Source of the DNA: Candidatus Bathyarchaeia archaeon
Lineage (GTDB): Archaea; Thermoproteota; Bathyarchaeia; Bathyarchaeales; Bathycorpusculaceae
Reading direction: 5' to 3'
NCBI GenBank assembly: GCA_038883715.1
Contig: JAVZLS010000013.1
Span: forward strand, 1 to 41,145
Length of the DNA stretch: 41,145 bases
Shown here in pieces: positions 4,053 through 28,432 of the stretch. The notes under the pieces were generated by a model, which saw nothing but the letters and a program-made list of their open reading frames with translations, was not told where the DNA came from and made no database searches. Numbering within the stretch: position 1 is the first letter of the stretch; each line of letters begins with the position of its first letter. The position numbers and the translations under genes are program-made.

Positions 4053-4053
4053 G

Positions 4054-7829: not shown

Positions 7830-8679
7830 GATTATTTTTGGTTAACATTATTGTTAATACTTTAATAGTCCCAAGTGCACGACTCTCGATTTCAAAGAGC
7901 CCCATAGTTTTGAACATGTTCTCTTTTAATATCCTCTCCAAAGCGGATTTGACGAAAAACCATTCAATCTTCGAAGTAACATGCTGTAGCACTCGTGTCA
8001 GCACATCCACTATTCGGTTAGTTGAAAAAGCGTCCACTATGCAAAGCACCCCGCCGGGTTTTAGAACGCGACGGAATTCTTCAACAGCCGCTTTTCTTCC
8101 TGAGAATGTTTTAATCTCATGAATAACGCCACTGCAAAGGATCACATCAACAATGGAGTCTCTAAGGGGAAGATGCTCAACCTTGGATCTTATGACTTCT
8201 AAAGATTTGCTTAGCTCCTTGCCATATTTCAATGAAATATCATCGACGTCTACGCCTACCATTTCAAAATTTTTGCTACAGTGTTTTTGGAGCCTCAGAA
8301 TAAACCTTCCCCACCCGCATCCAGCATCCAAAACAATGGAGTTGGCGCTCCCTAGAAACTTTTCTAGCAACTCTAGAATTTTGAAGAATGCGCTCTGTTT
8401 TTTATCAAAACTTTTAGCGTCTTTAAAAATCTGTTTCACAAGCTCATTAGGACTTCCAAACATTTTCAAAGTTTTAACAACATCAGCCTCTTCAACAGTT
8501 TTTGCCCCTCTCTTTAAAGCGCCTTTTAAACTGTAAAACTTTATCTGGTTCTCAAGTTCAAAAAGCATGTTTTGTAAATACTCGGGTTTGACCTCTAACC
8601 TTGAAAACTTATACTTAAAATCCTTTAAATAATTCGCAATAATCCTTTCAGCTCTTTCATCAAAACTTAATTTGGACAG
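7822..8679 (-). CDS. class I SAM methyltransferase with N-terminal HAAS-like helical domain; probable CTG start at 8679 (track start 8568)
   Basis: VLDAGCGWG, GVDVD, LPLRD, RVLKPGG; frame is open upstream to GGAGG-N7-CTG. Confidence 0.8.
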   Translation of the reverse strand: MSKLSFDERAERIIANYLKDFKYKFSRLEVKPEYLQNMLFELENQIKFYSLKGALKRGAKTVEEADVVKTLKMFGSPNELVKQIFKDAKSFDKKQSAFFKILELLEKFLGSANSIVLDAGCGWGRFILRLQKHCSKNFEMVGVDVDDISLKYGKELSKSLEVIRSKVEHLPLRDSIVDVILCSGVIHEIKTFSGRKAAVEEFRRVLKPGGVLCIVDAFSTNRIVDVLTRVLQHVTSKIEWFFVKSALERILKENMFKTMGLFEIESRALGTIKVLTIMLTKNNHV

Positions 8680-11023: not shown

Positions 11024-11704
11024 ATGGGCATGGCGGCAGATTCCAGAAGAATAGTTTTCCTAGCGCTTATGGCGGCGTTAGGAAATGTGATGTTTGTTAT
11101 TTCGCAAACAATTTTTAAGATGACCCAAATAGCCCTAGACTTATCCCATATTGGAACTTTAATTGCAGCGGTTTACGGGGGCCCATTGGCAGGTTTAGTT
11201 GCCGGGCTTCTTGTGGGCATAGGACCTGGAATCTACTTCGGGTATGTGGGTGGAAGCCTAGGGCTGCTTGGAGCTTTAGGTTTACCTATAGGAAAAGCGA
11301 TGACGGGTGTTAGTGTTGGCTATTTGGCGAAGATATTTAGAGTGCAACATTCGAAAGGCTCTTCTTGGAAGGTGACCTTCGCAACTTTGATCGGATATAT
11401 TCCAGAGTGTATTTATACGCTGTTCTTCTTTATTGTTCTCGTTACAATTCTACTTCCAGATGTTGCCGCATTTTTCACATCCATCTTCGGTTCAATATGG
11501 GCGCTAGCACTTTCAGTTTTAGCCAAAGCATGGGTTGAAATGGCTTTGCTGGGATTTTTCATGGGAGCGCTCGTTGGAAACAGCGGTTTTAACGATTTTG
11601 TAGGTCGTGTTTTCATGAAAACTTTTACAGTTCAAAAATTCAAACAAAAGGCAAGGAAGAAAACTAGCCTAACTCAAAGGATTTCGTTAGGGCATCAGGA
11701 TTAA
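11024..11704 (+). CDS. ECF transporter S-component-like membrane protein
   Basis: IVFLALMAALG..DLSHIGTLIAAVYGGPLAGLVAG pattern; about 6 TM helices. Confidence 0.75.
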   Translation: MGMAADSRRIVFLALMAALGNVMFVISQTIFKMTQIALDLSHIGTLIAAVYGGPLAGLVAGLLVGIGPGIYFGYVGGSLGLLGALGLPIGKAMTGVSVGYLAKIFRVQHSKGSSWKVTFATLIGYIPECIYTLFFFIVLVTILLPDVAAFFTSIFGSIWALALSVLAKAWVEMALLGFFMGALVGNSGFNDFVGRVFMKTFTVQKFKQKARKKTSLTQRISLGHQD

Positions 11705-12629
11705 TCTTTCCGGCCGTGAAAGTTTTTCCGGTTCTAATGTTGTTTATGGTTATTTTTGCTGGTGCGAATATGTTTGGGTCTATTTTGTAGAAGTCGTAAT
11801 TGGCGGCTTTGAAAATTTCTAGGAAGGGCTTGCCATAGTCTTTTGACGATTTGGACGGAGCTTGCTCTACTATCTTGGCTAGCTCGTCTTCGTTTTCATA
11901 GTCAACTATGTAGTGGGTTACTCCTCCATATAGGATGGCGTCGTTGGTTCTAGCCATGGCTTTGACAAATTTTGGGTGAGCTGGCGGTATTGGAGCGGAG
12001 CCCCAAGCATAAAGAATAGCGTTCGGGTTAAAGCCCAACTTTGTGAGTTTATGGATTCCAGTTTCAACTATTCTTCCGGCTACCTGTGTTGCTCCGGCTA
12101 GGCTTGCTGTGGGGGTTAGTATTAATGCCAGGTTTTCGTACTGGATGTGGCAGTCTTCAGCCAGCCTCCGCATGAGCTTTTCAGGCGGCATTTTGTCGGT
12201 TTCCAAGACCACTATGGCTTTGTCAAACTCGTCTTTATAGCCTATCTTCTCATAGATTTCCTTTGGTTTTTGGGCTAGGGCTCTTGCGGGTCCAGAGCCT
12301 ATGGCGAAGTAGTCACCCTCCTTAATGTTCCATCCTGCAAACTGCGAACCCAAAGTGGCTATGGCTGGATGGTCTGTGTAAACAAATATTGTTGGAAGCT
12401 CGAATTCACCATACTGCCAAAAGCCTATAGTGGCTTTTCCACACCCGCCCATGCAGATTTCCGTTATAATCTTGCCGGCTTGAAAGCCGCCTTTCGATTT
12501 TATCCCAGCATCCACAACTGTGGCGCCGCATTCCGCCTTTTCAACCTTTACGCCGTAAAATTCTGGGCTTCCACAAAGTTTTTCCAGCAGCTTCCATGCC
12601 AAACGGTTTACACTTAATCCGCCTTTCAT
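11664..12629 (-). CDS. mch: methenyl-H4MPT cyclohydrolase
   Basis: LSVN, EICMGG, LGSQFAGW, GSGPARAL, TNDAILYGG, FYKIDPNIFAPA. Confidence 0.96.
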   Translation of the reverse strand: MKGGLSVNRLAWKLLEKLCGSPEFYGVKVEKAECGATVVDAGIKSKGGFQAGKIITEICMGGCGKATIGFWQYGEFELPTIFVYTDHPAIATLGSQFAGWNIKEGDYFAIGSGPARALAQKPKEIYEKIGYKDEFDKAIVVLETDKMPPEKLMRRLAEDCHIQYENLALILTPTASLAGATQVAGRIVETGIHKLTKLGFNPNAILYAWGSAPIPPAHPKFVKAMARTNDAILYGGVTHYIVDYENEDELAKIVEQAPSKSSKDYGKPFLEIFKAANYDFYKIDPNIFAPAKITINNIRTGKTFTAGKINPDALTKSFELG

Positions 12630-12643
12630 GGCTTAACCCCATT

Positions 12644-13471
12644 TTAGAGAAGTTTTTCATAGCGGCTTAGGTGGGGGTTCGGCTCTTTTGCGACAAAAAG
12701 CCTTCCACGACCGTTTTCCGTCAAATCTCCAAGGAACAAGTAGAAAGGCGCTTCCACAACTTCGCCCTCTTCTATTTTAACTCTCTTCCTTATGCCCTCA
12801 ATTGTGAATGTGGGGAGAACGGATTCCAAGAAGCCTCCGACAACTATCGTCCCGTCTATCATGCATGCTCCAGCTCTTCCACCGCAGTCTTTCTGCACGT
12901 AAATTGTGCCGCCATGCATTCTGAAACCCACAAACTGTCCGGCATTCCCACAAATCTTTATCAAACCTTTCTTCATGTGGGCTCCGGCTTCGCTTCCAAC
13001 GTTTCCATGCACAATTATTTTTCCACCTTTCATTCCTTCAGTGCTTCCGCGGTACGGCGCACCTAAATAGTCGCCGGCGTTTCCGTGAATCTCTATTGTT
13101 CCGCCCTTCATCATGGAGCCAGCCCAACCAAAAACGTTGCCGTAAACGGTTATTTTTCCGCCGCGCATTTCTTCGCCCAGGTGCATGCCAGCGTCGCCTT
13201 TAACAATTATTTCGCCGCTTTTCATTCCAGCGCCTATTCGCCTAACGCGGCTCACATCACCATGGATAGTTATCACGGTGGCTTCAGATTTGCCTTCTTC
13301 CTTTGCCACTTCAACTTTGAAGAGTTCTCCAAGTTTTTTCTGTTTTTTCCCTTCCCAAACCTCCAGCCCTTCAATTTCTTTTTGTTTTTTCCCTTGGAAA
13401 ATGTCTGGGTTTATGCATTCAGCCATTATTGGCAGTTTGAACTCCTTTAACGGGTATAGGTTTACCAACAT
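12644..13471 (-). CDS. fwdC: formylmethanofuran dehydrogenase subunit C
   Basis: Repeated GxxMxGGxIxVxG beta-helix motifs; GAPYRG. Confidence 0.95.
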   Translation of the reverse strand: MLVNLYPLKEFKLPIMAECINPDIFQGKKQKEIEGLEVWEGKKQKKLGELFKVEVAKEEGKSEATVITIHGDVSRVRRIGAGMKSGEIIVKGDAGMHLGEEMRGGKITVYGNVFGWAGSMMKGGTIEIHGNAGDYLGAPYRGSTEGMKGGKIIVHGNVGSEAGAHMKKGLIKICGNAGQFVGFRMHGGTIYVQKDCGGRAGACMIDGTIVVGGFLESVLPTFTIEGIRKRVKIEEGEVVEAPFYLFLGDLTENGRGRLFVAKEPNPHLSRYEKLL

Positions 13472-15162
13472 TATACATCAGCCTTTACGGTTATGGGTTG
13501 GGAAATTGCCAAATAATCCTCACTTACCGGATAGTTCTCAAACTCAACAGTCCAGTACTCTTTAAACCGCCTTTTCATTTCCTCTGTTATTTTCGCCTCT
13601 TCGCTGGTTTTCACGTCCAACCACATAGTTGCCCCATCAATATGCCTTAAAACCTCGCCGTCCTTAACAACCACTTGTCCGCCCTTAATAGTGTAGGCTG
13701 CCCTCTTGAAAGCCCGCCTCAAAGCCTTATACTTCTTTGAGGGGTCGGTGGTTTCTGGGTTAAAGTTGTATATGGCTATGTCCGCGTCTGCGCCGACGCC
13801 TAAGTGTCCCTTGTTTTTAAGCCCTAGGGCTTTGGCTTGCCCCGCTCTCGTCACTATGGCTATTTCATAAAAGCTTAACTCGCGGTCTATTGTTGGGAGG
13901 AGGCTTCTACTTCTGGCTTTTGGATTAATCTTTTTGAGGGTGGCTTCTCTGGCTTTTCTGCTCATAAGCCAAGCCACAATCCTCGGATAAGCGATAAATG
14001 GTCCACCGTTCGGGTGGTCTGTTGTCATTAAAATTTTCCAGGGGTCTTTTATTAGTAGGGCTAGTTCTAAGCCTATTGACCACTGGGTTGCGTGAACATA
14101 GCTTTTCCTCTTGTAGTGGAATGGTACGATTCCGGCGCTGGTTTCTGTTTCCACGTCGTGGTTTACCCACTTGTTGCCGCTTAATGTGTAGAGTATGTAT
14201 TGGAATGGACCGTCAGCCGTCATTGTCGTTGTGTTTGTGAATATTACCTGTCCCATGTCCATTGTCACGTGGGAATGGGCGTTGACGTAGTTGGCTATCT
14301 CTTCTGCTCCGGACTCGAAGGTTCTCCAGTCGTCACCCTTAAAGGCGCTGAACTGGCAGTGGGTTATATGGATTACCGGTTTGTCGTCTTCGGCTAAATC
14401 CTCCACGCATTTCATTGTTTCTAGGGCTGTCACATAATTGCCCGGCTTCCCAAGATTGTTTGTGTGCACGTGGATTGTGTGTGGCAAGTTTAGAAGCTTA
14501 TTAACCTTGCATAGTCCGCGGATAATCTCGCGGGGTGTAATTCCAAAATATGGAACTTGGTCGTCTATGCTGTTTACGTTGTGCCCAAAACCCCAAGCCT
14601 CAAGCCCACCTGGGTTGACAAGCTTTATCGCGTAGCCCTTAGTCGCCTTAATCATCCATGCCACGTGGCGGGCGCACTCCTCTATTCTGCCATCCCTCAA
14701 ATATTCGAGGACAAACCACCAGTCGCCGAGGAGCGGATAACTAGACTTATCAATTATTGGCGTGTCGCTTAACTCTTCATGGGTGTGTTTCGCCTCCAAA
14801 GGTGGCATGGCTGGGTCCATAACCGTTGTCCAGCCCATCCTCGCGTAACGATAACCCGTCGTAAAAGTGGATGGAATAGAATAGCCCACACCAGACCTTG
14901 TTACGGCTGTTTTGCGTTCAAAATCCTTGAAGTGGTCTTCTGGGCGTAGCAGCCTTCCAGAGTTCACTTTTCCTCCGGCTATGTGGCTGTGGATGTCAAC
15001 CCCGCCCGGCATGACAACCATTCCAGAAGCATCAATCTTCTTAGCTCTCCGCTCGTTAACTTTCTCGACTATTTTGCCGTCTTTCACGGCTATGTCCATT
15101 TTTTCTCCGTCAATACCGTTGAGGGGGTCGTAAACAAGCCCGTTTCTTATTAGAAGCTCCAT
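13471..15162 (-). CDS. fwdA: formylmethanofuran dehydrogenase subunit A
   Basis: DIHSHIAG, KLVNPGG, HVHTNNLGKPGN, TTDHPNGGPF. Confidence 0.96.
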   Translation of the reverse strand: MELLIRNGLVYDPLNGIDGEKMDIAVKDGKIVEKVNERRAKKIDASGMVVMPGGVDIHSHIAGGKVNSGRLLRPEDHFKDFERKTAVTRSGVGYSIPSTFTTGYRYARMGWTTVMDPAMPPLEAKHTHEELSDTPIIDKSSYPLLGDWWFVLEYLRDGRIEECARHVAWMIKATKGYAIKLVNPGGLEAWGFGHNVNSIDDQVPYFGITPREIIRGLCKVNKLLNLPHTIHVHTNNLGKPGNYVTALETMKCVEDLAEDDKPVIHITHCQFSAFKGDDWRTFESGAEEIANYVNAHSHVTMDMGQVIFTNTTTMTADGPFQYILYTLSGNKWVNHDVETETSAGIVPFHYKRKSYVHATQWSIGLELALLIKDPWKILMTTDHPNGGPFIAYPRIVAWLMSRKAREATLKKINPKARSRSLLPTIDRELSFYEIAIVTRAGQAKALGLKNKGHLGVGADADIAIYNFNPETTDPSKKYKALRRAFKRAAYTIKGGQVVVKDGEVLRHIDGATMWLDVKTSEEAKITEEMKRRFKEYWTVEFENYPVSEDYLAISQPITVKADV

Positions 15163-16619
15163 TAGGCTTTAGCCTCCTTCCTTTTTATCCTTCTAACTTC
15201 AGCCAAAATCCGCCTCAGAATCTCCTCGTCTGGAAGAATGCCCCTCGGTGGGTTCACCACCTTCTTTAGAGGTATGGGCACGTGGTCCATGCGGTAGGCT
15301 GTTCCAGAAGCTTCTATGCCAACAAAAGCCGACGGAATAAGCACGTCAGCCATTTGAGCTGTCACATTCATGTGGGGGTCGATAACTATTAAGGGGTTTT
15401 CCACCAAGTGTTCAGCCGCTTTTCGTGGGAAGTTTGAAACTGGGTCTGAAGCCACTATTAGAGCGGCATCAGACTCCTTCCGCAATAAAACGTCGATAAC
15501 TGATGTTTCGCCGGGATTGTACCTTGGATAGCCAAGGGAGAAGTCCACGGCGTACGGGTAGCCCGTTTGCCAAGTAAAAACCGTGTTGGCGCCAGTCACA
15601 TTGAAGTGCCCCCGCATGGGCATTATGACAAATTTTGTTCTCATGTTTAGGTCCCGCACTAATGAAAGCGCCGCGTCTATGTTTCGCAGTTTGCCACTGC
15701 TCATTGTTAAGCCAAGCCCAAAGAACAAGGCGCCGAAATCGCAGCTAACCATGGCGTCAGCCACCTCCTCCAAATACTCCACTGGTACTCCAGCCACTTT
15801 GTCAACTTCAAGCTCTTGGTCGCGAACCAGCGCCCGGAAAGCCTGCAAAAGCTCATAATCCCTGTTGGGCTCAACTTGCACGAAATAGTCTGCGATTTCA
15901 GCCGACTTTGTCCGCCTAACGTCAATCACTATAAGTTTTCTACCTTCCTTGGCTATTGACGGGTAGGGCTTATACCCGGAAACTGGTGGAGGGACCGGCG
16001 CCGGCTTTTTGAAGAACAGCCGTTTAATGGCACTTTGAATCTTTTTCCGTCCGACAAGAGCCTTAACCTTGTTCACGTAACTTCTCCATGCGCTCTTCTC
16101 AAATCTTCCCTCTGAGAAGGCTGTGTAACGCTCTATGTGCCTCGGATGGGCACTCCAAGGGTTGCTCCCCCAATAAACGATAAGGTCAGCCCTATGCCTA
16201 ATCTGCCCCAAAGTGCATGATGGAATCCCAACGTCTTGAATGCTTAATATTGATGGCCCGTGGCAGACAACAGAGGTGTTGTCTATTACTCCGCCAACTT
16301 CTTCAGCGAGTTCTATGCCAACGCTTATGGCTTCGCAACTTGTGCTGCTCCAGCCATAAAGCACTGGATAGTTAGCTTCAGCCAAAATTTCAGCTGCCCT
16401 TCTAACAGCCTCTCTAAGGGTTGTTTTGACAAGCCCGCCATTTTTCCTTATCATGGGCCTTAAAACACGATGCTCGCCACAGTAGCCCAAAAACTTGGCT
16501 TCACACATGGCACAGCCATTCTTAACCTTGACGATGCGTCCATTCTCAACGGTTAGTTCTATGTCATCGCATAGGCTTCCACAAACGGGGCAAGTTACAG
16601 CCTTAACAACCGGCATCAT
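15162..16619 (-). CDS. fwdB: formylmethanofuran dehydrogenase subunit B (W/Mo, Cys-type)
   Basis: CPVCGSLCDD, VCHGPS, HPRH, MRGHFNVTG, RYNPGET. Confidence 0.96.
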   Translation of the reverse strand: MMPVVKAVTCPVCGSLCDDIELTVENGRIVKVKNGCAMCEAKFLGYCGEHRVLRPMIRKNGGLVKTTLREAVRRAAEILAEANYPVLYGWSSTSCEAISVGIELAEEVGGVIDNTSVVCHGPSILSIQDVGIPSCTLGQIRHRADLIVYWGSNPWSAHPRHIERYTAFSEGRFEKSAWRSYVNKVKALVGRKKIQSAIKRLFFKKPAPVPPPVSGYKPYPSIAKEGRKLIVIDVRRTKSAEIADYFVQVEPNRDYELLQAFRALVRDQELEVDKVAGVPVEYLEEVADAMVSCDFGALFFGLGLTMSSGKLRNIDAALSLVRDLNMRTKFVIMPMRGHFNVTGANTVFTWQTGYPYAVDFSLGYPRYNPGETSVIDVLLRKESDAALIVASDPVSNFPRKAAEHLVENPLIVIDPHMNVTAQMADVLIPSAFVGIEASGTAYRMDHVPIPLKKVVNPPRGILPDEEILRRILAEVRRIKRKEAKA

Positions 16620-17025
16620 TAATCCTTCCTAAAACTGTTTTGAGAAGCTCCTCCAAGCCTAGAACTGGCTTGTCTAGGGCTGGCTCCACAGAAGCTGGAA
16701 TCCCCTTAAAAGAGGGCATACCAATGCCATTGGTTTCAGGGTCGACAACAACATTCGCCCATGGACCATAAGGGATAAAAACCACGCCTTGGTGCGGTGC
16801 CCTCAAAGATTTCTTGGCTTTAACCACGACTGAGCCAAAAGCCGTTGAAACTTGAATGTTGGTTCCATCTCTTATGCCAAGCCTTTTCATATCCTCTGGG
16901 TCCATATAGCAAACGGATACGCTTTCCACATACTCTTTTGAGGATTTTCCCCGCTCTTTTCCGGCACCCTGCTCTATTGTACGTCCAGTCAATAGGGTAA
17001 CTTTCAGCTTAGGCTTCTCTTCCAT
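16603..17025 (-). CDS. fwdD: formylmethanofuran dehydrogenase subunit D
   Basis: LLTGRTIEQG, FIPYGPWAN, GMPSFKG. Confidence 0.95.
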   Translation of the reverse strand: MEEKPKLKVTLLTGRTIEQGAGKERGKSSKEYVESVSVCYMDPEDMKRLGIRDGTNIQVSTAFGSVVVKAKKSLRAPHQGVVFIPYGPWANVVVDPETNGIGMPSFKGIPASVEPALDKPVLGLEELLKTVLGRINDAGC

Positions 17026-18287: not shown

Positions 18288-19238
18288 TTATGGTCTATAG
18301 CCGCTCAGCAAAGCTAAGGCTAGGGCGGCAGCAATTATGTCTGCTGTTGTTCCCGGATTCAATAGATTGCTTTCCTTTCTTAGCATAGCGTCAAACTCAC
18401 GGAGCTTCTCCCTCCCAACGGCTGTTTTAAGACCTCCGCTTTTCAAGACTCCCTCAGCTGTAGCGGAGACTTCACGAGCTCTTTTAAGTCCAGCCTTTCT
18501 TGCAATGAAGGTGTCTGGATGCCTAGCTAAAACAGCAAGGAATGTGTGAATTATTGCCGTGTTAAGGTCTTCGTCTTCCTTAAGATTCTGCATCAACAGT
18601 GGATAGGCATGTTCGAAGGTTACTGGGTAGTTGTTAACCCATTCTGAGCAAACCATGTCGTAGGATGAGGCTATTTTGAAAACTTGGTAAAGTGAAATTC
18701 CCTCTTCAATTATGCGCTTCACAGAGTTTGGGTCGTTAACATCTAGGTCTGGGGCTTTTCCCAAACCGCTGGGCTTGGCAATTCCAACAGCCTCGTAAAC
18801 TGCAACGGCATCTTCGGGCGTTGTCGCTTCGACAATTCTTTGCAAATTTTGCCTTAAAATAGAAAGGTTAAAGATTCCCTTTTCCGTGGGTGTCATGCCA
18901 GCCGCCACAGCTAAAGGCGTAAAAAGTATTATTGTGCCAAGCAACGTGTTGCCACCGCTCTGCCAAGCATTAATGTCAGCTACACAGTCTCTGATAATCC
19001 CTCCAACACCTACGTCTCTCAAAGCCAATTCGCCCCTTGAAACAATCATGCCCCGTTCGGCAGCCAACCTAAAATGGGGAGCCGCCGCCACAGCAGAAGC
19101 CAAAAAATGCATGTGATTGGTTCCCTCAAAACCAACCACCAAATTCACGTTTCCAGGCTTATCAGCACCAACCTCCAAAAGAATGGCCAACTCCAAACAA
19201 CGCGAAACATGCTCAGCCTTGTTAAACGGGAAAGCCAT
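18288..19238 (-). CDS. CitG/MdcB-family triphosphoribosyl transferase (archaeal/methylotroph H4MPT-linked type)
   Basis: LEV..KPGNV, NTLLGTIILF, DTFIARK, NPGTTADIIAA. Confidence 0.9.
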   Translation of the reverse strand: MAFPFNKAEHVSRCLELAILLEVGADKPGNVNLVVGFEGTNHMHFLASAVAAAPHFRLAAERGMIVSRGELALRDVGVGGIIRDCVADINAWQSGGNTLLGTIILFTPLAVAAGMTPTEKGIFNLSILRQNLQRIVEATTPEDAVAVYEAVGIAKPSGLGKAPDLDVNDPNSVKRIIEEGISLYQVFKIASSYDMVCSEWVNNYPVTFEHAYPLLMQNLKEDEDLNTAIIHTFLAVLARHPDTFIARKAGLKRAREVSATAEGVLKSGGLKTAVGREKLREFDAMLRKESNLLNPGTTADIIAAALALALLSGYRP

Positions 19239-19288
19239 CGAACATTGCACCTTTACTGTATAGCTTGCATGGAAAGGCTTATTAACGT

Positions 19289-19306
19289 TGTGTAAAAAAT
19301 TACACA
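19289..19306. promoter_or_regulatory. palindromic operator in the citG/ECF-S divergent promoter
   Basis: TGTGTAA-AAAA-TTACACA immediately 3' of the BRE/TATA-like GAAAGGCTTATTAA. Confidence 0.6.
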
Positions 19307-19338
19307 GCAATTACCAAAAATACATAAGGAAGTTGAAA

Positions 19339-20295
19339 ATGCAAAAGTTAAAGGTGTCTGCCCGTGAAATAGCCCTAACGGCAATCTTTGCGGCTCTATC
19401 GTGGACTGTTTCAGAATTTGTTCCGGGAATTCCGATAATAGGCGCTTCTGGTTCAAGTATAAGCTTCGACGCCTCGCTGGCGCCCATCTACGGCGTAATT
19501 GTCGGACCATATTTGGGGTTTCTTGCAGCCGTGATCGGTGGTTTAGCTGCAGCTGGAAACCTCTTTACGATTTTAACATCCTTCTGCACTGGCATATCGG
19601 CGTTTGTTGCAGGAATGTTAACAACCAAAAAAGTGGGTAAAACAATTCATGGATGGACGTTTTCAGCGGTTGCCATCGCAATACTTTTGGCAGGCTGGTA
19701 TTCCACGGATATTGGTCGAGCGGCACCATTTTATCCGATTCCCCATATCACGGGACTGTTGATGGTGCTTATTGCTAGGGGATGGATTGCCGACAAAATT
19801 GTAGAGGAAAAAGAAGAAAAACTGGTTAAAAAATTGAAGACGGACTATATGGCTTGGGGCATGATTTGCCTATTGATAGGGATAACATGCTACTTCACTT
19901 ACACAGATATTGGAAAATTATTTGAAACCATGGAAATTCTCAAAGTTTTGCCATTTCTCACTTACGCCATGCTCATAATCGGAGCGTTCTCGATAATTTA
20001 CGGATTCTTCAGCTGGATTAAACCAGGATTTGTGACGGCTACAGCCATAGCGTGCTACTGTGGAATCATCGCAGACCATATGCTTGGCAACTTAATATTT
20101 TTGGGTATGATGGATGTTGTTGCTCCTGCATTGAAGAGCGCGCCAAGCGAGTTTATAGCGGGCATATTTATGATGGTGCTTCCGATATCAGTTATTGAAA
20201 GAACGTTGTTTACAGCTATTGCCACAACAATTGCGGTGGCTCTCTTGCCAACTTTACGGAAAGCTGGGCTCACATACAGAAAGAGCGAAATATAA
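19339..20295 (+). CDS. ECF transporter S-component-like membrane protein, extended
   Basis: EIALTAIFAAL, LAPIYGVIVGPYLG, DHMLGN, IERTL; ATG 19339 after AGGA. Confidence 0.78.
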   Translation: MQKLKVSAREIALTAIFAALSWTVSEFVPGIPIIGASGSSISFDASLAPIYGVIVGPYLGFLAAVIGGLAAAGNLFTILTSFCTGISAFVAGMLTTKKVGKTIHGWTFSAVAIAILLAGWYSTDIGRAAPFYPIPHITGLLMVLIARGWIADKIVEEKEEKLVKKLKTDYMAWGMICLLIGITCYFTYTDIGKLFETMEILKVLPFLTYAMLIIGAFSIIYGFFSWIKPGFVTATAIACYCGIIADHMLGNLIFLGMMDVVAPALKSAPSEFIAGIFMMVLPISVIERTLFTAIATTIAVALLPTLRKAGLTYRKSEI

Positions 20296-20305
20296 GCTGA
20301 TAGTA

Positions 20306-21334
20306 ATGATGTCGAAAATGCAGCCAGCAGAAGGCTTTTTAATAGAGTCTGTTGAGGGCATAATCTTTGACGTGAAGGGACTAGTTCACCCGCCAAGCAA
20401 GATAATAGCTTTTCCCCGCTTTATTCCAGATAAAAAAGGTTCTCGCATCCGCAACGGCGTTATGTACAGCAAAGTTTATGGAATTTCTGAAAGGTTCGCT
20501 TTTCTCGGAAGGACTATTCCGAATTATGTTGTTCACGACCCGATTTTTGACGATAAGCTATGTGAAGTTCCGCTGGAAAATGTAAAAAAGGTTTACAGCC
20601 CAATTGAGGGCTTAAAGAGGCTTAGGGAAAGCGAAAGCCTCGATGGTTTGGAAAAGGCTGCTTTGCAATGTCTAGAAATTTTGAAAAAAGAGGCAGGAGT
20701 GCCGTGGAACAAGCTTGGGATTTCTGGTTCGGTTTTGGTTGGCTTGCATACTGATGCCTCTGACATAGACCCAGTTGTTTATGGCGCTGAAAACTGCCGG
20801 AAAGTGCACAGAGCCTTGAAGAGGTTACTTGAGGAAGGTAACACTCCTTTCAAGCCTTACAGTTTGGAGGATTTGCGGAGGCTTTTCGCCTTCCGTTCGA
20901 AAGACACCATTATGAGCTTCGAGGACTTCGTAAAGGTCGAATCCAGAAAGGTTTTCCAGGGCAAGTTCATGAACAGAGACTATTTCATCCGTTTCGTGAA
21001 GGACTGGAATGAAATAGGCGAAAAGTATGGCGATATCCGCTATAAGAATTGTGGCTATGCGAAGGTTGAGGCCGTGGTTGTTGATGATGCTGAAGCCATA
21101 TTCACACCATGCACATACAAAGTTAGAGACGTAAAAGTTGTCGAGGGACCAAAACTCGAACCAATAAGGGAAATTGCATCTTTTCGCGGAAGGTTCTGCC
21201 AACAAGCAAGGGAAGGTGAGAGTGTCACGGCGCAAGGAAAACTTGAACATGTGACGGACGGCAGAAGTGGCGAGGAATACTTTAGGCTACTTCTTGGAAA
21301 CAAGCCAACAGACTACATGATTTTAAAAAGTTAG
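20306..21334 (+). CDS. Pol-beta-superfamily nucleotidyltransferase, paralog 1 (COG1665-like)
   Basis: EGIIFDVKGLVHP, LGISGSVLVGLHTDASDIDPVVYG, C-terminal beta domain (IFTPCTY, SFRGRFCQQA..GKLE). Confidence 0.85.
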   Translation: MMSKMQPAEGFLIESVEGIIFDVKGLVHPPSKIIAFPRFIPDKKGSRIRNGVMYSKVYGISERFAFLGRTIPNYVVHDPIFDDKLCEVPLENVKKVYSPIEGLKRLRESESLDGLEKAALQCLEILKKEAGVPWNKLGISGSVLVGLHTDASDIDPVVYGAENCRKVHRALKRLLEEGNTPFKPYSLEDLRRLFAFRSKDTIMSFEDFVKVESRKVFQGKFMNRDYFIRFVKDWNEIGEKYGDIRYKNCGYAKVEAVVVDDAEAIFTPCTYKVRDVKVVEGPKLEPIREIASFRGRFCQQAREGESVTAQGKLEHVTDGRSGEEYFRLLLGNKPTDYMILKS

Positions 21335-22416
21335 GTTTTAGCTGCCGGCTCTGCAACTTTCAAGGCTTGCTCGTAATAGCGCGGTCCATAAGTCAATGTC
21401 ATTTGGTGAAAGCACTCGCCATCTTGTAACTCAACTTTTTCAAGGTTTCCTTCAGCATAAACTATTTCGCCACTCCACGCCTGCATCCTAAACTCTTCAA
21501 GATAGGAGACAACCCTTTTTAAGTCTCTCACTTTTGGGCCTTCAATAATTTTAACAGTTTCAACATGGTAAATTGATGGCATAAAAGGGGCTTCTGAATC
21601 ATCTTTTATGCGTAGAAGCGCCTTAACCCAGCCTTCACGGGTAATTCTCCTAACTTGACCGTATTCGTTTCTAATTTCACTCCAGTCTTTCACTGGTTCA
21701 AACTCAACCTTGATGGTCCTTCCGGAGGCTTCGTCGTAGAAAACTCCGTAAATGAGCTTGCGCCGTTGATGCCAAATAAACTCTTCTGAGCGTATGTTCT
21801 TAAAGCGCCAAACCTTCCCCTTAATGGATGAGTCATCTTCGAACTCGTTAGAAAAACCCGAATTCTTATCCATGTAAAGTTCTTGTAGAACCTCACGTAT
21901 GCGCTCAAGATTTTTCCTCCCATAAACAACCATGTCTATGTCAGAGAATTTTGGATGGTAGAAGCCTTGGAGAAGCGAGCCGAAAACACCAAAATCCATA
22001 ATAGACAAGCCGGAACTAACCACTGTTGCTTCTAAGACTTTTTGAAGAGCCTTTAGAAGCTTGTCTTTCGGTTCTTTTTCAATAAGCCTTTTTAGGGCTT
22101 CCTCCGGCTTTTTTATGCCCGCCACATTGGAGTTTTTCACGCCGACAACCTTTCTGCCGATTGGCTCGTACAGAATCATGTATTGTGGATAGTTTGCCTC
22201 TATAAAGCGCCAGCCTTCATCCTCGTAAAACTTGTAAAAGACATTTGCGCCATCAGTTCTGTAGGCTTTAGGGTTGGCAGACTTAAAAAGATTAGAAGGC
22301 GCATACTCAGCATCGCATACGAAACCATCTGGCGGATGAGTATAGCCAAAAACGCGGAAGATTAAGCCTTCACGTGTTATTATTGCGTCGCGGTCCCTAA
22401 GCCTTAAACCGGCCAA
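21331..22416 (-). CDS. Pol-beta-superfamily nucleotidyltransferase, paralog 2 (COG1665-like)
   Basis: [58 protein letters not shown]. Confidence 0.85.
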
Positions 22417-23441
22417 ATGTACTCTTCCTCGCTCTCAGCAGTTCCGACAACAACTTGATAAAAGGCTTCACCGCCGCCAACCCTCTCCACTCGTTCCAGC
22501 ATCCCGGAAACCTCTATTTTCTGGTTGCTTCTGGCTATGTTTCTGTAGCATCCAATCATGGAGACAACGGCCCATGGAACCATTTCTCTTGGAAGCTTTG
22601 AGTTTTTGTTTAATGGTGTGTAGTCTTCAATCTTGTATATGGCTGGACGGAACATGGCTTCGCTGTCATCTTTAACCTTGCATTGGAATTTGACTAGCGC
22701 GATTGGCGTGTAAAAGTACTCGCCATACTTGGTTGTAACTTCTTCTGGTTTACGGACAGCATTATACATGAAGATTTTCCCGAGGTAACGCCCCTTAAAC
22801 CGTCTCGCTGCGTCCAGACGGTTGTTAAAAATGTAGCTTAGGGTTCCCTCCTCAACAAGCTTGTTAATTGCTTCCTCCACCTTGCGGAAGTTCTGGCTTC
22901 CATAAACAACAATGTCTATGTCAGACTTTTGGGAATGCATGTTTAGTGCTATGGAGCCGTGGACACCAAAATCGTCAAGGACAACCTCTGAAGCATTGGA
23001 AACTAAATCTACAAAATCAAGGGTCATCCTTTGCAGTTTATCCAGCTTTTTCATTTTCAAGAGTCGTTGGAGGCATTCCCTTGGAACATAAATCCTCCTA
23101 ATTTTCTTTAAAGGTACACTGATAACATCTTTTCCTCTGTAAGGGCAATGGTAAACATAGTCCGGGAAATATGTCCGAAAAACTTCTAGGAAAGTTTGGT
23201 AGTTTTTCGCCGTGTAAAGCTTTTCAGCCCTAAAAAGCTCGGTTCGCCCATAACGCCACGTCCTCCCCAAAAGGCGGACATTAAATAGTTCTTTAAACCC
23301 TGATGGAATATACTTTAGAAAAGCGAAGACCCGCTTTTCCGGATGTTCGTACCCAAAAACGTTTAGTATAAAGCCCTCTTTGGTTGTGAATGTGTCTCCG
23401 TCCATTGGAAGCCAGTTTTTAGGTGCAGCCGTCAATGTCAC
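22404..23441 (-). CDS. Pol-beta-superfamily nucleotidyltransferase, paralog 3 (COG1665-like)
   Basis: [57 protein letters not shown]. Confidence 0.85.
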
Positions 23442-24016: not shown

Positions 24017-24559
24017 TTGAAAACCAAGGTCGCAGTCATAGCCGTATTGGGAGGCAAAGAGTCAGGCAAAACAACGACAATAGAAGCCTTAACAAGGGAG
24101 CTAACCCGCCGAGGCTACAAAGTTGCAGCCATAAAACACATTCCAGAGAAAGACTTTACAATCGACACAAGGGGCAAGGACACTTGGAGATTCGCCGAAG
24201 CCGGAGCAAAAACAGTGGTCGGCATCTCGCCAAAAGAAGTGGCCACTATAGAAAAGGGCAGCGCGAACAATTTTTCCCTAGAAGCCATAATAGAAAAATG
24301 CCAAGACAGTGACATAATCCTAATTGAAGGTTTCAGAAAAATTTTGGGCAAAAACTCCAATATACCAAAAATAGTGGCGGTAAAATCTGAAGAGGAGGCT
24401 GCTGAAGCCCTAAAAGCCTATAAGCCCATAATAGCCTTTACAGGACCCTACTCGCCGATGATAAAAGACTTGCCGGCTCCATACTTTGATGTTTTTAGGG
24501 AGCAAGCCGAACTTGCGAAGCTTGTGGAAAAAATTATAAGGGAAAAAAGAGGTTTTTGA
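24017..24559 (+). CDS. mobB: molybdopterin-guanine dinucleotide biosynthesis protein B
   Basis: GGKESGKTT, IKH, DTRGKDTWRF, LIEGFR. Confidence 0.92.
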   Translation: MKTKVAVIAVLGGKESGKTTTIEALTRELTRRGYKVAAIKHIPEKDFTIDTRGKDTWRFAEAGAKTVVGISPKEVATIEKGSANNFSLEAIIEKCQDSDIILIEGFRKILGKNSNIPKIVAVKSEEEAAEALKAYKPIIAFTGPYSPMIKDLPAPYFDVFREQAELAKLVEKIIREKRGF

Positions 24560-24562
24560 AGT

Positions 24563-24699
24563 AGCCCCTTTATGGAGCGCCCATGTTTATTTGTGGGGTT
24601 TGGAGATTCCGAGGGGGAGAAGGGGGAGAAAGGAGAGCTTTTCAAAAATAGAAGTGGTTTCTCCAAACCTTTCCACTTTTTGGGCGTTCCTATAGGGCT
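24563..24699. repeat. long imperfect inverted repeat between convergent mobB and cdvC
   Basis: AGCCC/GGGCT, GGAGCGCCCA/TGGGCGTTCC, GTGG/CCAC and GGTTTGGAGA/TCTCCAAACC around a purine-rich loop. Confidence 0.7.
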
Positions 24700-25859
24700 T
24701 TAAAGGCTTCAAACCATCTGTTGTATAGGGCCAGCATGTCAAGGGAGACGCTTGGCTTTCTCTCTTCAAGAATCTGTCTAAAATCGCTCATCCGCAGGGG
24801 CCTTGGCTTGGCAAGCTTGTTTGATGCTTGACCAGACTCAAAGAATTCGCCTATAACTTTTAGGTGGGCTGCTTGGCAGACGTCTTTTATGTCGCTTCCT
24901 GAAAAGCCTTCTGAAAGCCTAGCCAACTCGTGCAAATCCACATCTGGAGCCAAGAGCAAATTGCTCGTGTAATGCTTAAACATCATTAGGCGGGCGTGGT
25001 GGTCTGGAAGTGGCACAAGGATACGCTTTTGGAAACGCCTAATAAAGGGCCAGTCCAAATCCCAAGGCTTATTTGTGGCGCCAATAACATAGACGTGAAT
25101 GTTTTTGCCCTTATCTATTATGCCGTCCATCTCCTTCAAGAACTGGTTTCGCACTCGAACTTCGCCGCCAACCTCGTTGGAATGCTTACCCATCAGAGAG
25201 TCTAACTCATCAATGAAGATTATAGCTGGCTTCTTATCCTCCAAAGCAGACTTCCTAGCAGACTCAAAGAGGCGGGCAACATTCTGCTCAGCCTCACCCA
25301 GCCACTTAGACATTATTGAGGCGGCATCCACAGAAATAAAGACGGCGTCAATCTCTGTTGCGGCAGCGGCGGCCAACAAAGTTTTGCCGCATCCAGGTGG
25401 TCCGAATAGTAGTATGCCTCTAGGCCACCCAAGTGGGAAAAGGTCTGGTCTCTGAACCGGGTAGATTATGGCTTCCTTTATGGCTTTCTTTGCAGTGTCA
25501 AGTCCAATAACCTCGTCCCATTTCACGTTTGGCTTTTCCTTAACAATTAGGTCTTCATAGCTGGCCTTCCTCTCCTCGCCCACTTTTCCTCCTTCAACAC
25601 CTTTAGCTTCTTCCGCCCTTGGCTCTGCTGGACCAACAGCGCCCTGCAGCACTTTAATTCTCTCTTGATAGGCTATGGCCCTTTGAATGTAAACCTTGTT
25701 TAAGCTGTAATCCGGATAAAGCTGAACAAGCTTCAGAAGGGTTTCTATAGCCTTCTGATACATGGTTATGGCCATGCCTCTGGCTCCCTGCTTGTCTAGG
25801 CGGACAGCCTCTAATGCATAGTTTGTTGCAGCCTTTTCCAGTTCCTGCGAAGCTTCCAT
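24690..25859 (-). CDS. cdvC: CdvC / Vps4 AAA ATPase with MIT domain
   Basis: N-terminal MIT (AVRLDKQG..AITMYQKAI), GPPGCGKT, SKWLGE, FIDELD, ATNKPWDLD, RRFQKR. Confidence 0.95.
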   Translation of the reverse strand: MEASQELEKAATNYALEAVRLDKQGARGMAITMYQKAIETLLKLVQLYPDYSLNKVYIQRAIAYQERIKVLQGAVGPAEPRAEEAKGVEGGKVGEERKASYEDLIVKEKPNVKWDEVIGLDTAKKAIKEAIIYPVQRPDLFPLGWPRGILLFGPPGCGKTLLAAAAATEIDAVFISVDAASIMSKWLGEAEQNVARLFESARKSALEDKKPAIIFIDELDSLMGKHSNEVGGEVRVRNQFLKEMDGIIDKGKNIHVYVIGATNKPWDLDWPFIRRFQKRILVPLPDHHARLMMFKHYTSNLLLAPDVDLHELARLSEGFSGSDIKDVCQAAHLKVIGEFFESGQASNKLAKPRPLRMSDFRQILEERKPSVSLDMLALYNRWFEAFKAL

Positions 25860-25866
25860 AAGGAGT

Positions 25867-26784
25867 TCACCTTCTAGCTTCGATCTTTATCTTACCTTTA
25901 GCCCCAAGACTTTGGAGGGCTTTTTCAATATCTTCGTATGAGGCGCCCAACTCCCGAGAGCAGCGCGTTAAGTCTATTTCGCCTCCACTTTTCCGAACAT
26001 ATTCTAGGAGGGCGTCTTCAAGCGTCGGCTTTCCAACCCGGAGCGAAATCTCTTGGATTTCAGCCTTTCTGAAGGAGATGAGGTTTTGGGAGCTGCTCCC
26101 TTCGGCTTCAACTGTTTCGCCGCCAACAGACTGGGAGCATGAAGCAGCTAGGGCAACCATCTGCTTAATCTGGGCTTGGGCAGGCTCAAGTTTTGCCTCC
26201 AGCTTTGGCGCTGGTGCTTCCTCCTGCATAGCGGGCGGTTCAGGAAGCTTCTCAGCCAACCTCCTCTCCAAGAAACTTGAAACTTCTTTCAGAATTTGTT
26301 CTCCGGCTGGTGTAACTCTGTCAACTGGGATTATTACTTCGTCTGCTGATATTCTTGTAGAGTAGATTGTTTCTCCTATAACGTCGTTGATTTCGCTAAG
26401 CTCTGAGGAAACCTCTGGTAAAACATCAAAGAGCTGTTTTGAGACGCTTTGGAGAGTTCTCAAGGCAGGTTTTAGGTCTATGACTATGTCGCTTAGCTCT
26501 TTCACCGTTTCGAGGCGGAGGATAACCCTTTCAATGGCAAGCTCCACCTGCTGGAGAAAATTAATTAGCTTTCGAACTTCGGCTAGCTCGTTTGCACATA
26601 TTGCGGCCCTTTCCTTGTTGTTGGCTCTTAGTGCTGTTACGCATGTCTGGAATAGGTTTTTGTCTCTTTCCTTCAGCCTCAGTGATGCTTGAACCACTTT
26701 ATGTTGTTGGATTCGCAGTTTATGCACAGACTTGATTATAACTTCTCGTAGTGGTGGAGGGGTTTGGGTGAAAGGGTTTTTTAT
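25867..26784 (-). CDS. cdvB: CdvB (ESCRT-III core, MIM2, C-terminal winged helix); probable ATA start at 26784 (track start 26727)
   Basis: RAAICANELAEVRK, LRLETV, LPEPP, C-terminal YVRKSGGEIDL..LGAKGKI; GGAGGG-N7-ATA in frame. Confidence 0.9.
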   Translation of the reverse strand: MKNPFTQTPPPLREVIIKSVHKLRIQQHKVVQASLRLKERDKNLFQTCVTALRANNKERAAICANELAEVRKLINFLQQVELAIERVILRLETVKELSDIVIDLKPALRTLQSVSKQLFDVLPEVSSELSEINDVIGETIYSTRISADEVIIPVDRVTPAGEQILKEVSSFLERRLAEKLPEPPAMQEEAPAPKLEAKLEPAQAQIKQMVALAASCSQSVGGETVEAEGSSSQNLISFRKAEIQEISLRVGKPTLEDALLEYVRKSGGEIDLTRCSRELGASYEDIEKALQSLGAKGKIKIEARR

Positions 26785-26814
26785 TTTTGCTCCCTCCGCC
26801 CGCTACGCAGAAAC

Positions 26815-27534
26815 CTATATTCCGGATTCGCCTGCTTCTTTCACGTAAACTATGACTGGTGGTTCTGGGAGGCTTGGAGACGGGGGAGTTGGGGCTTCAA
26901 CATGCTCTTCAGTAACAGCCTTCGGCGCCTCTCCCAATAGAATGTTTGAAAGCTTGTTTTTCATGCTTTCAAGGTCTGTCTTCTCCAAGTTCGCCCTTTT
27001 CAGGCATTCTTGAATTGTTGTAAACGCCGCCTGATAAGATTGGTCGTCAACCTCGCCTATCTCATGCTCTACTTCTAGGTGGACAAGCGCATAATTCAGC
27101 TCCCTAATCTCCTGATTGCACCTTTCAATCTCTTTATCAATCCTTTCAAGAAGGGTTTGGGCTTCACTTTTAAGCTGGTTTAGGGCGCCCTCAAAACTTC
27201 TGTGTAAGTCTTCATAAACTTCTGGTGAAATCTTTTTTTTCTCAAGAAGCTCTTTTAGGGCTTGGTCTTTACGCCATATAAGCGGAATCTGGTCGCAGAA
27301 AACCGCGGTATCATATTTAACTTTTGAAAGGAAAATTACTTCTGAGCCTTCAACCTTTATTGTCCCAGCGGGATACTTAACGAAGCGCCCATCACTGTGC
27401 CTTATGTAAACGGCGTCCACTCCACCGTGGGGCTTTACAGCTAGGGAAGCCACCTCGCCTATTGGGCGTCCATACTCGTCTTTAATGACTTTGCCGAGGG
27501 ACAAAAAAAGATTGGGATCTTGTGGCATGTACAC
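26815..27534 (-). CDS. cdvA: CdvA (PRC barrel, coiled coil, C-terminal CdvB-binding peptide)
   Basis: GKVIKDEYGRPIG, GEVDDQSY, C-terminal PEPPVIVYV; located between ESCRT-III genes. Confidence 0.88.
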   Translation of the reverse strand: MYMPQDPNLFLSLGKVIKDEYGRPIGEVASLAVKPHGGVDAVYIRHSDGRFVKYPAGTIKVEGSEVIFLSKVKYDTAVFCDQIPLIWRKDQALKELLEKKKISPEVYEDLHRSFEGALNQLKSEAQTLLERIDKEIERCNQEIRELNYALVHLEVEHEIGEVDDQSYQAAFTTIQECLKRANLEKTDLESMKNKLSNILLGEAPKAVTEEHVEAPTPPSPSLPEPPVIVYVKEAGESGI

Positions 27535-27549
27535 TCCTCCATTATGTTA

Positions 27550-28212
27550 TTAAGATGTTTCTGTTGTGGATTTTTCTGGAAGCGGCACCTGCGGGATCCC
27601 TGCCGGAAGCTCTGGGAACTTCTCCTTAATTTTCTGTTCAGCCACAGCTGCAGCCTCAGTAAGTATTTTTTGGGCGTCTTCGTTAGCTGTTTCAAAGTTT
27701 ATGGATAATCCTGTGCTTTGTCCAGCCTCAACTATTATTCCGCTTAAAAGGTTGCCTATCTGCCCTAACTCCCTCTCCGCTTCTGGGAAGATGTTAGCCA
27801 TTCCAGTTTTTACGGCTCTTAGCACGCTTACTGCGGGTCCAAGAGTTGAAACAACGTCTCCAAGCTCTGATACTGTGCGTAATCTTAAGACTATTTGTTC
27901 AAGGGCAAGCCTAGCCTGCATAATCATCTTTTCCATCTTCCTTATCTCAGCCAACTCGTTGGCAAAGACATTTGCCCGTGCCATGTCATGCTTTGTGTAA
28001 GCATCGACAATTCTTGCAAATATTGACTTGTCTCTCTGGCTGAACCTCTCACTTGCTTGGTCTAACTTCTGTATTTGGAGTTCTATGCGTCGGACAGCCA
28101 TGTCAAGCCTCGGCTTCAACGGACCCGGCGGCCTGACAGCCTCCTTGATGCGCTCTGTTATTGGTTGCTCGTCGCGTCTCTCATCCCATTTTCTACTAAA
28201 CTTTTCGGACAA
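27550..28212 (-). CDS. second ESCRT-III/Snf7 paralog without wH (CdvB1/B2-like); TTG start at 28212
   Basis: RANVFANELAEIRK, LRLRTV, EDAQKILTEAAAVAE, FPELP; GGAGG-N8-TTG. Confidence 0.9.
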   Translation of the reverse strand: MSEKFSRKWDERRDEQPITERIKEAVRPPGPLKPRLDMAVRRIELQIQKLDQASERFSQRDKSIFARIVDAYTKHDMARANVFANELAEIRKMEKMIMQARLALEQIVLRLRTVSELGDVVSTLGPAVSVLRAVKTGMANIFPEAERELGQIGNLLSGIIVEAGQSTGLSINFETANEDAQKILTEAAAVAEQKIKEKFPELPAGIPQVPLPEKSTTETS

Positions 28213-28432
28213 GCTTGATTCCTCCAAAAAGAGGCTTAAGGGGCATGGCAAATCTTTATACATTCTTAATATGCCCGCATTATCCACGTATATATGTAGA
28301 GCTATATGTGCCGGCTGAAACCTTTTTGAGCTTTAATTTTCCAGTGAAAAGAACTCCTTGCTGTTTTCTCGGAAATAGACAAAAAAGTGTAAGTTAGACT
28401 AAAAAGAGGCTTATAATTCAATTCTAGGCTAG

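Follow-up and report, generated by a model that had tools for sequence, protein, structure and literature searches.

In the reaction of CitG and MdcB, the 5-triphosphoribosyl group moves from ATP onto a hydroxyl; adenine is lost and an alpha-glycosidic bond forms. CitX and MdcG, the latter a protein of the Pol-beta fold, join the alpha-phosphate to a serine hydroxyl with release of pyrophosphate (PPi). Methanopterin carries one-carbon units in methanogenesis, in anaerobic methane oxidation, in the Wood-Ljungdahl pathway of archaea and in formaldehyde oxidation by bacteria. It bears a 5-phospho-alpha-ribosyl group on its ribitol, with the phosphate esterified to 2-hydroxyglutarate. We know of no enzymes assigned to the attachment of ribosyl-5-phosphate or of 2-hydroxyglutarate. 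Here, we describe a gene cluster at positions 18288-23441 of a 41,145-nucleotide stretch of DNA (hereafter the window) from a Candidatus Bathyarchaeia archaeon, in which a CitG-like gene, a membrane protein gene and three paralogous nucleotidyltransferase genes (NT1, NT2 and NT3) lie together near genes of tetrahydromethanopterin (H4MPT) metabolism. The window belongs to a Bathyarchaeia genome, and its close homologs and the titles of the compared loci bear the same Bathyarchaeia name. The best explanation overall, to which we give an even chance, is that the three paralogs represent a mainly archaeal Pol-beta-fold nucleotidyltransferase (NT) family of methanopterin-type biosynthesis that acts with the CitG-like enzyme. 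That the NT family belongs to the biosynthesis of methanopterin-type cofactors is, taken by itself, highly probable.

The pair resembles MdcB/MdcG and CitG/CitX in that a CitG-family gene (PF01874) is combined with a second transferase carrying a G..GS / D.D signature (which we take to be that of MdcG as well), and in the proposed attack of a hydroxyl on the triphosphoribosyl alpha-phosphate with release of PPi. Unlike MdcG and CitX, the NT proteins are not matched by the models of those enzymes and carry an additional N-terminal barrel and a C-terminal OB domain; their proposed acceptor is a small molecule of a cofactor pathway and not a protein serine. The CitG-like protein, in turn, falls far short of the scores required by the CitG and MdcB equivalog models, and, in contrast to the systems of these enzymes, no citrate-lyase acyl carrier protein (ACP), CitX or MdcG was found in the source genome. 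The mch-orf5-orf7-fae island of methylotrophs also holds a CitG-like gene, orf7, according to the island description in PMC3615186 and the gene table of PMC11533326. The product of orf7 is of the same family and is encoded beside mch and a RimK-type ligase (PMC3615186, PMC11533326), but these bacteria make dephospho-H4MPT, which is without the phosphate and the hydroxyglutarate (PMC8141765). Terminal uridylyltransferases, MenT toxins, CD-NTases and minimal nucleotidyltransferases share the core fold and motifs of the NT proteins. They differ in that searches by sequence and by fold found no full-length solved relative for the NT three-domain architecture, and in that the NT context is cofactor biosynthesis.

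Three Pol-beta-fold paralogs and a CitG-like protein

All five genes named in the first-pass annotation are present in the open reading frame (ORF) list of the window. The CitG-like gene lies on the reverse strand at 18288-19238, within an ORF that extends to 19310 and with a probable ATG at 19238 as judged from the sequence. A divergent intergenic spacer of 100 bp (19239-19338, likewise read from the sequence) separates it from an operon on the forward strand, opened by an S-component-like polytopic membrane protein of 318 amino acids (19339-20295) and continued by NT1 (20306-21334). The ORF list has the CitG-like gene begin at 19310 and the membrane gene at 19288, in both cases probably ahead of the true start. 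The ATG of NT1 at 20306 lies 10 nt after the stop of the membrane gene and not inside it. NT2 (21331-22416) and NT3 (22404-23441) are on the reverse strand and overlap by 13 nt according to the ORF coordinates, which also bear out the convergent arrangement of NT1 and NT2 with a 4-nt overlap at 21331-21334.

End-to-end alignment confirmed three full-length, diverged paralogs, with 33% and 29% identity to NT1. The Pol-beta motif is intact in each of them, and G..GS and SDID are invariant (alignment A1); other invariant motifs are the N-terminal E-G..(I/L).V.G..HP, SDID.VVYG and the C-terminal DD.EA.F.P..Y. NT2 and NT3 match PF01909 (NTP_transf_2) with 27.2 and 24.1 bits, above the cut-off of 21, while NT1 matches no Pfam family and the NCBIfam search of the three proteins gave no match. 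No Pfam, NCBIfam or PDB family spans the whole NT protein. The source genome contains only these three copies. The family as a whole comprises 2140 proteins at E<=0.001 among 4587 candidates scored, and an exhaustive search yielded 1437 clusters at 50% identity at E<=0.001, or 405 at E<=1e-30. Its members are labelled "predicted nucleotidyltransferase" or "hypothetical" in their sources, and the matches in the ESM Atlas are exclusively unnamed archaeal "hypothetical protein" clusters; the family presumably corresponds to COG1665, a label carried in the first-pass annotation. In a 48-member alignment G143, G146, S147, D159, D161, G166, G323 and E326 are invariant, and 45 of the 48 members match PF01909 (E<=1).

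An AlphaFold2 model of NT2 was obtained with a mean predicted local distance difference test (pLDDT) value of 95.1 and a predicted template-modelling score (pTM) of 0.92. Residues 116-244 form a Pol-beta palm whose fold matches include TUT7 (Z 7.5, root-mean-square deviation 3.3, 93 residues aligned), TdT (Z 6.8), Pol beta (Z 6.2) and MenT1 (Z 6.2), all fold Z values in this analysis being middling on the scale of the tool itself. Motif, profile and palm fold together identify the NT proteins as members of the Pol-beta-like nucleotidyltransferases. Residues 1-115, modelled alone, form a small beta-barrel (pLDDT 92); an attempt to name this barrel fold from VIA-align was dropped, the best Z of 4.2 being too weak. 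In the PDB, sequence searches found no NT relative (best E 0.27 with NT2 alone and 0.029 with the 48-member profile), and Foldseek returned nothing at E<=0.001 for either the full NT2 model or the N-terminal domain.

The relationships of the paralogs were examined in a FastTree tree of 79 sequences, left from 219 after thinning at 65% identity, which is midpoint-rooted and read here as topology, its support values not having been inspected. The NT1 clade is the CitG-adjacent one; it includes the first-position genes of the Asgard pairs described below (tblastn identity of 49% between NT1 and the first of the two NTs in the Asgard operon), and at two of its loci (L066 and L051) the CitG-like gene is 4-7 nt away. 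The NT2 clade is sister to the single-copy genes of methanogens, and the NT3 clade is restricted to Bathyarchaeia. A fourth clade comprises the second gene of tandem pairs, and deep branches of crenarchaeal type complete the tree. On a strand that could supply a third catalytic carboxylate, NT1 has D, NT2 has E and NT3 has no acidic residue (alignment A1); in the wide alignment A3, no acidic residue is invariant as a third carboxylate. The acidic residue missing from NT3 hints that NT2 and NT3 may be an active/inactive pair. Complex prediction for NT2 with NT3 (alignments A6 and A7, respectively) scored 0.00, which speaks neither for nor against a heteromer, and no fused NT1 forms of at least 600 amino acids were found, which is weak evidence according to the search tool.

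The CitG-like protein matches PF01874 with 238.5 bits (1.5e-70) against a cut-off of 27, nearly over its full length (residues 37-332, profile positions 2-283 of 284). Its scores against the CitG/MdcB equivalog models, at 60.8, 48.8, 42.1 and 41.8, stay below the respective cut-offs of 280, 282, 272 and 477, and the closest solved relative is 3h9p (1.1e-13). By these profile scores, it is a subfamily distinct from true CitG/MdcB. Searches of the whole source genome (90.3% complete) for CitX, MdcG and the citrate-lyase ACP (PF06857) found none of them, with E. coli matched as positive control in the CitX search. The absence of a citrate lyase ACP gene, claimed previously for the window, thus held across the genome at this completeness; these searches did not extend to the ACP of malonate decarboxylase.

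Distribution and gene neighbourhoods

In phylogenetic profiling, a check named in the first-pass annotation, the NT family tracks CitG-like and H4MPT genes. The counts are to be read as a pattern and not as a statistic, since related genomes are not independent. Among 201 Thermoproteota genomes of at least 80% completeness, the wider profile A3, which includes distant members from five Thermoproteota genomes that match by construction, detected NT genes in 101, and CitG-like genes were present in 92; both occurred in 91 genomes, NT alone in 10, CitG-like alone in 1 and neither in 99. With the narrow three-paralog profile A1 (NT in 91, CitG-like in 92), the corresponding numbers were 84, 7, 8 and 102. 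Every Thermoproteota genome with RFAP synthase (TIGR00144, E<1e-15) also encodes NT (73/73), and 28 of the 101 NT-positive genomes are without RFAP synthase.

Similar profiles were obtained for other phyla. In that of the Methanocorpusculum genome G001 (n=151), NT was found in 119 genomes and CitG-like in 144 (both 115, NT only 4, CitG-like only 29, neither 3). Mch is present in 149 of these 151 genomes and, being nearly universal, does not discriminate there. The phylum of Methanobacterium encodes NT in 121 of 121 genomes, almost always as a single copy, and one copy each was found in the named Methanothermobacter, Methanobrevibacter and Methanosarcina genomes. Of 81 Asgard genomes, 56 carry NT (typically 1, 2 or 4 copies) and 66 CitG-like; a hand count from two tables gave 52 with both, 4 with NT only, 14 with CitG-like only and 11 with neither. 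Full-length NT was found in none of 81 Thermoplasmatota genomes (three core-only fragments lie on frames of about 100 amino acids), of which 2 carry CitG-like, and the Methanomassiliicoccus genome returned no NT, CitG or Mch. Two further genomes were observed in passing. The control genome of Haloferax volcanii matches CitG, RFAP synthase, MptE-like and Mch. Genome G013 shows six NT matches, no CitG-like gene and an Mch match (G013:C4:2340-3273) with in-frame TGA, TAG and TAA stops, possibly through gene decay or an assembly error.

Gene order links the two families repeatedly. Bathyarchaeia loci share a syntenic block of CitG-like / membrane protein / NT1 / NT2 / NT3 / Lrs14-like / MobB / Vps4, which, taken alone, could be inherited gene order. 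In the rearranged loci L046, L047, L048, L050, L051 and L066, the CitG-like gene still adjoins NT1. According to match coordinates, CitG-like and NT genes are also adjacent and co-directional in at least eight other Thermoproteota family codes (genomes G097, G105, G089, G202, G029, G021, G037, G077, G166, G092 and G124). Two complete genomes of family f23 contain a DUF1464 - NT - CitG-like operon with NT overlapping CitG-like, and the NT homologs there are very distant, matching the family profile at E 1e-27 to 1e-34.

In the Asgard genomes G564, G575 and G604, two NT genes close an operon of the order DUF1464 - dihydromethanopterin reductase (DmrX) - MptH-like - MptA - NT - NT. DmrX matches TIGR02700 with 299.5 bits (cut-off 251), the dihydropteroate-synthase-like protein (MptH-like) TIGR00284 with 376 bits (cut-off 257), and the GTP cyclohydrolase MptA TIGR00294 with 295 bits (cut-off 220). 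The CitG-like gene is located 3-6 kb away on the opposite strand in these genomes, followed by a 350-amino-acid protein of unknown function and a TiaS-type kinase-domain protein (methanogenesis-marker-11-like, sub-cut-off), and by coordinates it lies 4-12 kb from an NT pair in eight more Asgard genomes. DUF1464 (butyrate-kinase-like) heads both the Asgard and the f23 operon. The DUF1464, 350-amino-acid and marker-11-like proteins are candidates for further methanopterin steps (loci of these conserved unknowns: L310:7-813, L310:7150-9336, L311, L312 and L089:8304-9200).

A further connection is provided by gene fusion. In protein P0162, HPPK (PF01288, 137.7 bits) is joined to the N-terminus of NT, and full-length HPPK-NT fusions formed 17 distinct 90% clusters among the best 120 matches (487-557 amino acids, at least 97% coverage, all with PF01288). 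At L313:5506-9086, the fusion is directly followed by a DmrX/AfpA-like flavoprotein (175 amino acids) and an MptH-like gene. This locus is the sole genome record found for the fusion, on a 59.6-kb contig of a metagenome-assembled genome labelled Acidobacteriota (label unverified). Either the NT family has spread into bacteria or the binning of the contig is wrong. The same question arises for L040, a Bathyarchaeia-like cluster labelled "Acidiferrales bacterium". Co-occurrence, adjacency, the Asgard operon and the HPPK-NT fusion together give strong support to the earlier proposal that the NT and CitG-like proteins form one functional unit in methanopterin biosynthesis.

Reaction step, precursor supply and competing explanations

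The specific step that we propose, formation of the phosphodiester on a CitG-made triphosphoribosyl intermediate, has in our estimate an even or slightly less than even chance of being correct. The data establish the family membership, the domain architecture, the genomic linkage to CitG-like and H4MPT genes and the failure to detect core-pathway genes. We infer the substrates, the order of steps, the release of PPi, the roles of the paralogs and import. The CitG-like enzyme would use ATP to attach a 5-triphospho-alpha-D-ribosyl group to a pterin-aminophenyl-ribitol intermediate at its terminal hydroxyl, releasing adenine. The NT enzyme, in the manner of MdcG/CitX, would then let the hydroxyl of (S)-2-hydroxyglutarate, or of a lineage-specific acceptor, attack the alpha-phosphate, yielding PPi and the ribosyl-5-phosphate diester of methanopterin. 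Glutamate addition by an MptN-like ligase would come last. Successive action of a CitG-like enzyme and a Pol-beta-fold transferase would give exactly the methanopterin linkage, and we therefore hold this mechanism to be the most likely.

The literature searched, with subscription literature outside its scope, contained no function for the NT family and no enzymes for these steps. The NT/CitG-like pair would thus represent a known two-enzyme logic placed in the methanopterin pathway, and would fill a long-standing gap. The NT proteins offer a concrete, widely conserved candidate family for the unassigned tail steps, with CitG/MdcG as mechanistic template. Enzymes of this kind would offer specific points of attack for methane-mitigation inhibitors.

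The gene content of the source genome fits a late, tail-side role, since the core enzymes were not found and the tail genes are kept. Profile searches of this genome detected no RFAP synthase (MptG), MptE-like pyrophosphokinase or MptA, and a separate search found no DUF1464. A tblastn search with the Asgard MptA, MptH-like, DmrX, DUF1464, marker-11-like and 350-amino-acid proteins also gave no match, although the same search did match CitG-like (43% identity) and the NTs (49%); cross-phylum tblastn can miss divergent genes, 10% of the genome is unseen, and the negatives for MptH and DmrX rest on this single search. The close relatives G017, G135 and G149 (95-100% complete) have no RFAP synthase, yet encode CitG-like and three NTs. 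The source lineage thus has H4MPT-dependent Mch and Fwd and, of the pathway genes, has kept CitG-like, the NTs and the MptN-like ligase. The genome looks auxotrophic for the methanopterin core.

With no pterin-arylamine core gene found, the module probably completes a core that is imported via the S-component-like proteins; in the simplest reading, a core or precursor is imported and the tail is then built onto it. The earlier claim that the S-component imports a precursor accordingly gained indirect support, from the missing core genes, the retained tail genes and the S-component-like genes that precede the NT pairs in the Asgard loci L054 and L056. The membrane protein at 19339-20295 matches the Pfam families ECF-ribofla_trS (24.5 vs 26.7) and ECF_trnsprt (22.7 vs 30.7) below their cut-offs, over the N-terminal 125-150 of 318 residues. 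Weak homologs of it occupy the same position at many Bathyarchaeia loci, and no similarity was detectable between the two S-component-type proteins of the window. A more specific version, in which CitG-like, the S-component-like protein and the three NTs constitute a salvage-and-tailoring module, appears rather unlikely to us: Bathyarchaeia in which the entire de novo pathway has been lost would take up a pterin-arylamine-ribitol core that has no tail, retain it by triphosphoribosylation and cap the phosphate, and the paralogs would serve different acceptor acids or form an active/inactive hetero-oligomer. If it is true, such archaea rely on neighbours for the methanopterin core, and the NT family would supply the enzymes of the last unassigned methanopterin steps in all methanogens. 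That some Bathyarchaeia may not make the cofactor core bears on genome-based accounts of their metabolism and on culturing.

Several points weigh against the proposed phosphodiester step, or against the proposed partnership with CitG. R. H. White's cell-extract work reportedly had ribosylation proceed from phosphoribosyl pyrophosphate (PRPP) and the hydroxyglutarate step with ATP; if this PRPP/ATP assignment is correct, a CitG-type donor is not needed. The activities of the CitG-like and NT proteins on the proposed substrates are putative. MdcG (PF10620) and CitX (PF03802) are not among the Pfam families matched by the 48 NT members (E<=1; 25 of the 26 families listed). The HPPK fusion attests to a shared pathway and not to the step. 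NT is found without a detected CitG-like gene in 10 Thermoproteota genomes, one of them 100% complete, and CitG with Mch but without NT in 29 genomes of the G001 phylum, mostly larger ones (e.g. G224, G262, G270, G278, G285 and G299). The proposal does not explain the three paralogs here, or the two or four copies in Asgard genomes, as a single enzyme ought to be enough for one step. At the loci examined, the single-copy NT of methanogens is not beside CitG-like genes.

The main rival places NT in the same pathway at another nucleotidyl- or phosphoryl-transfer step without a CitG-made triphosphate, for example adenylylation of ribosyl-5-phosphate or 2-hydroxyglutarate, or activation of an earlier pterin or arylamine intermediate. 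We consider it somewhat unlikely. It would account for the operon and fusion partners, which are early or core enzymes (HPPK, MptA, MptH-like, reductase), for genomes with NT and no CitG-like gene (10/201 Thermoproteota, 4/81 Asgard) and for the ATP-dependent hydroxyglutarate addition said to occur in cell extracts, and most Pol-beta-fold enzymes move nucleotidyl groups from NTPs. It fits less well with CitG-like being the tightest and most repeated Thermoproteota neighbour, with reading frames that even overlap, and with a source genome that keeps only CitG-like, NT and MptN-like, the core enzymes not being found.

Other points on the adverse side are those that could suggest an RNA substrate for the NTs, which might then process tRNA 3' ends or modify tRNA, with an indirect link to H4MPT. 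NT2 residues 257-359 are an OB fold resembling SSB, RPA and MCM N-terminal domains (Z 6-7), the top Foldseek matches for the NT2 model are SSBs (E 3e-3), and the N-terminal barrel has a weak Sm/KOW/MazF likeness (VIA-align Z<=4.2); OB folds and small Sm/KOW-type barrels are common in RNA-binding proteins. The core is nearest to terminal uridylyltransferases. The methanogen neighbourhoods point the same way. In 5 of 9 Methanomicrobiales/Methanosarcinales loci, NT is third after ACT-DUF5612 and a threonylcarbamoyl-AMP synthase (TIGR00057, 158 bits vs a cut-off of 123), and in 7 of 7 loci of the Methanobacterium phylum it is transcribed divergently from a set of DUF366, QueD-like, radical-SAM and CBS genes, and ACT-DUF5612 lies 0-7 kb away; the DUF366, QueD-like and radical-SAM genes look like tRNA-modification genes. 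On the other hand, the distribution of NT tracks RFAP synthase and CitG-like and not translation, NT went undetected in all 81 Thermoplasmatota genomes, in the Methanomassiliicoccus genome and in 99 of the 201 Thermoproteota genomes, and it occurs inside H4MPT operons and fused to HPPK, while the Z-scores of the fold matches are only middling. We regard an RNA substrate as improbable because phyletic pattern, operons and fusion all indicate a pterin cofactor. ACT-DUF5612, the conserved neighbour of methanogen NT (e.g. L302:12165-12818 and L101:6766-7452), is the AF1403 family, of known structure (1y7p) and no known function.

In another rival, the pair attaches a prosthetic group of the phosphoribosyl type to a carrier protein, in the way that CitG/CitX and MdcB/MdcG modify acyl carrier proteins. 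This would suit the pairing of a CitG-family protein with a Pol-beta-fold transferase, but is very improbable given the cofactor-biosynthesis context, the failure to find CitX, MdcG or citrate-lyase ACP in the source genome, and the examined clusters, in which no conserved small carrier gene was noticed, none having been specifically searched for.

Surrounding genes of the window

The H4MPT context noted in the first-pass annotation was recovered 1-12 kb upstream of the cluster. Methenyl-H4MPT cyclohydrolase (Mch; 11664-12629, reverse strand) matches Pfam MCH with 420.9 bits. The formylmethanofuran dehydrogenase genes (FwdC/A/B/D) occupy 12644-17025 on the reverse strand as ORFs, with a GXGXG domain in the first; the name FwdC follows from this Pfam match, and the other three, on which no family search was made, we take to be FwdA/B/D from their translations, names that BLAST labels also carry. 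The Fwd set is conserved alongside the cluster across the compared Bathyarchaeia loci. A second ECF-type S-component (11024-11704, forward strand; Pfam ECF_trnsprt 32.2 bits vs a cut-off of 30.7) overlaps the end of mch. The RimK-type ATP-grasp ligase (5988-6866, reverse strand; Pfam RimK 122.5 bits) has NF040720 MptN_Meth as its top match at 272.9 bits, not reaching the cut-off of 350, and passes a RimK-family subfamily model (220 vs 143). FdhD was also identified upstream by family search.

Downstream of the cluster, an Lrs14-like regulator, MobB and Cdv/ESCRT genes were observed. The Cdv/ESCRT-type cell-division set at 24690-28287 (a Vps4-like AAA ATPase with coiled-coil proteins) comes directly downstream and shares synteny with the NT block across the Bathyarchaeia; the Vps4 label comes from BLAST, and the Cdv names from a reading of the translations. 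The region is ringed by thiamine genes (ThiC, ThiD-ThiN fusion, Thi4) and molybdenum-cofactor genes (MobB, MoaA-like, FdhD), located at 1393-5062, 24017-24559, 39222-40154 and 5189-5962. Cofactor genes are abundant in the window.

The interval from the MptN-like ligase to the second S-component encodes a calcineurin-type metallophosphoesterase, a PNP/UDP-phosphorylase-family protein and a class I methyltransferase (8701-9633, 7053-8568). The phosphatase step of the methanopterin pathway is, to our knowledge, likewise without an assigned enzyme. In one distant genome (L091:6697-7275), a short ORF with weak likeness to metallophosphoesterases overlaps the start of NT.

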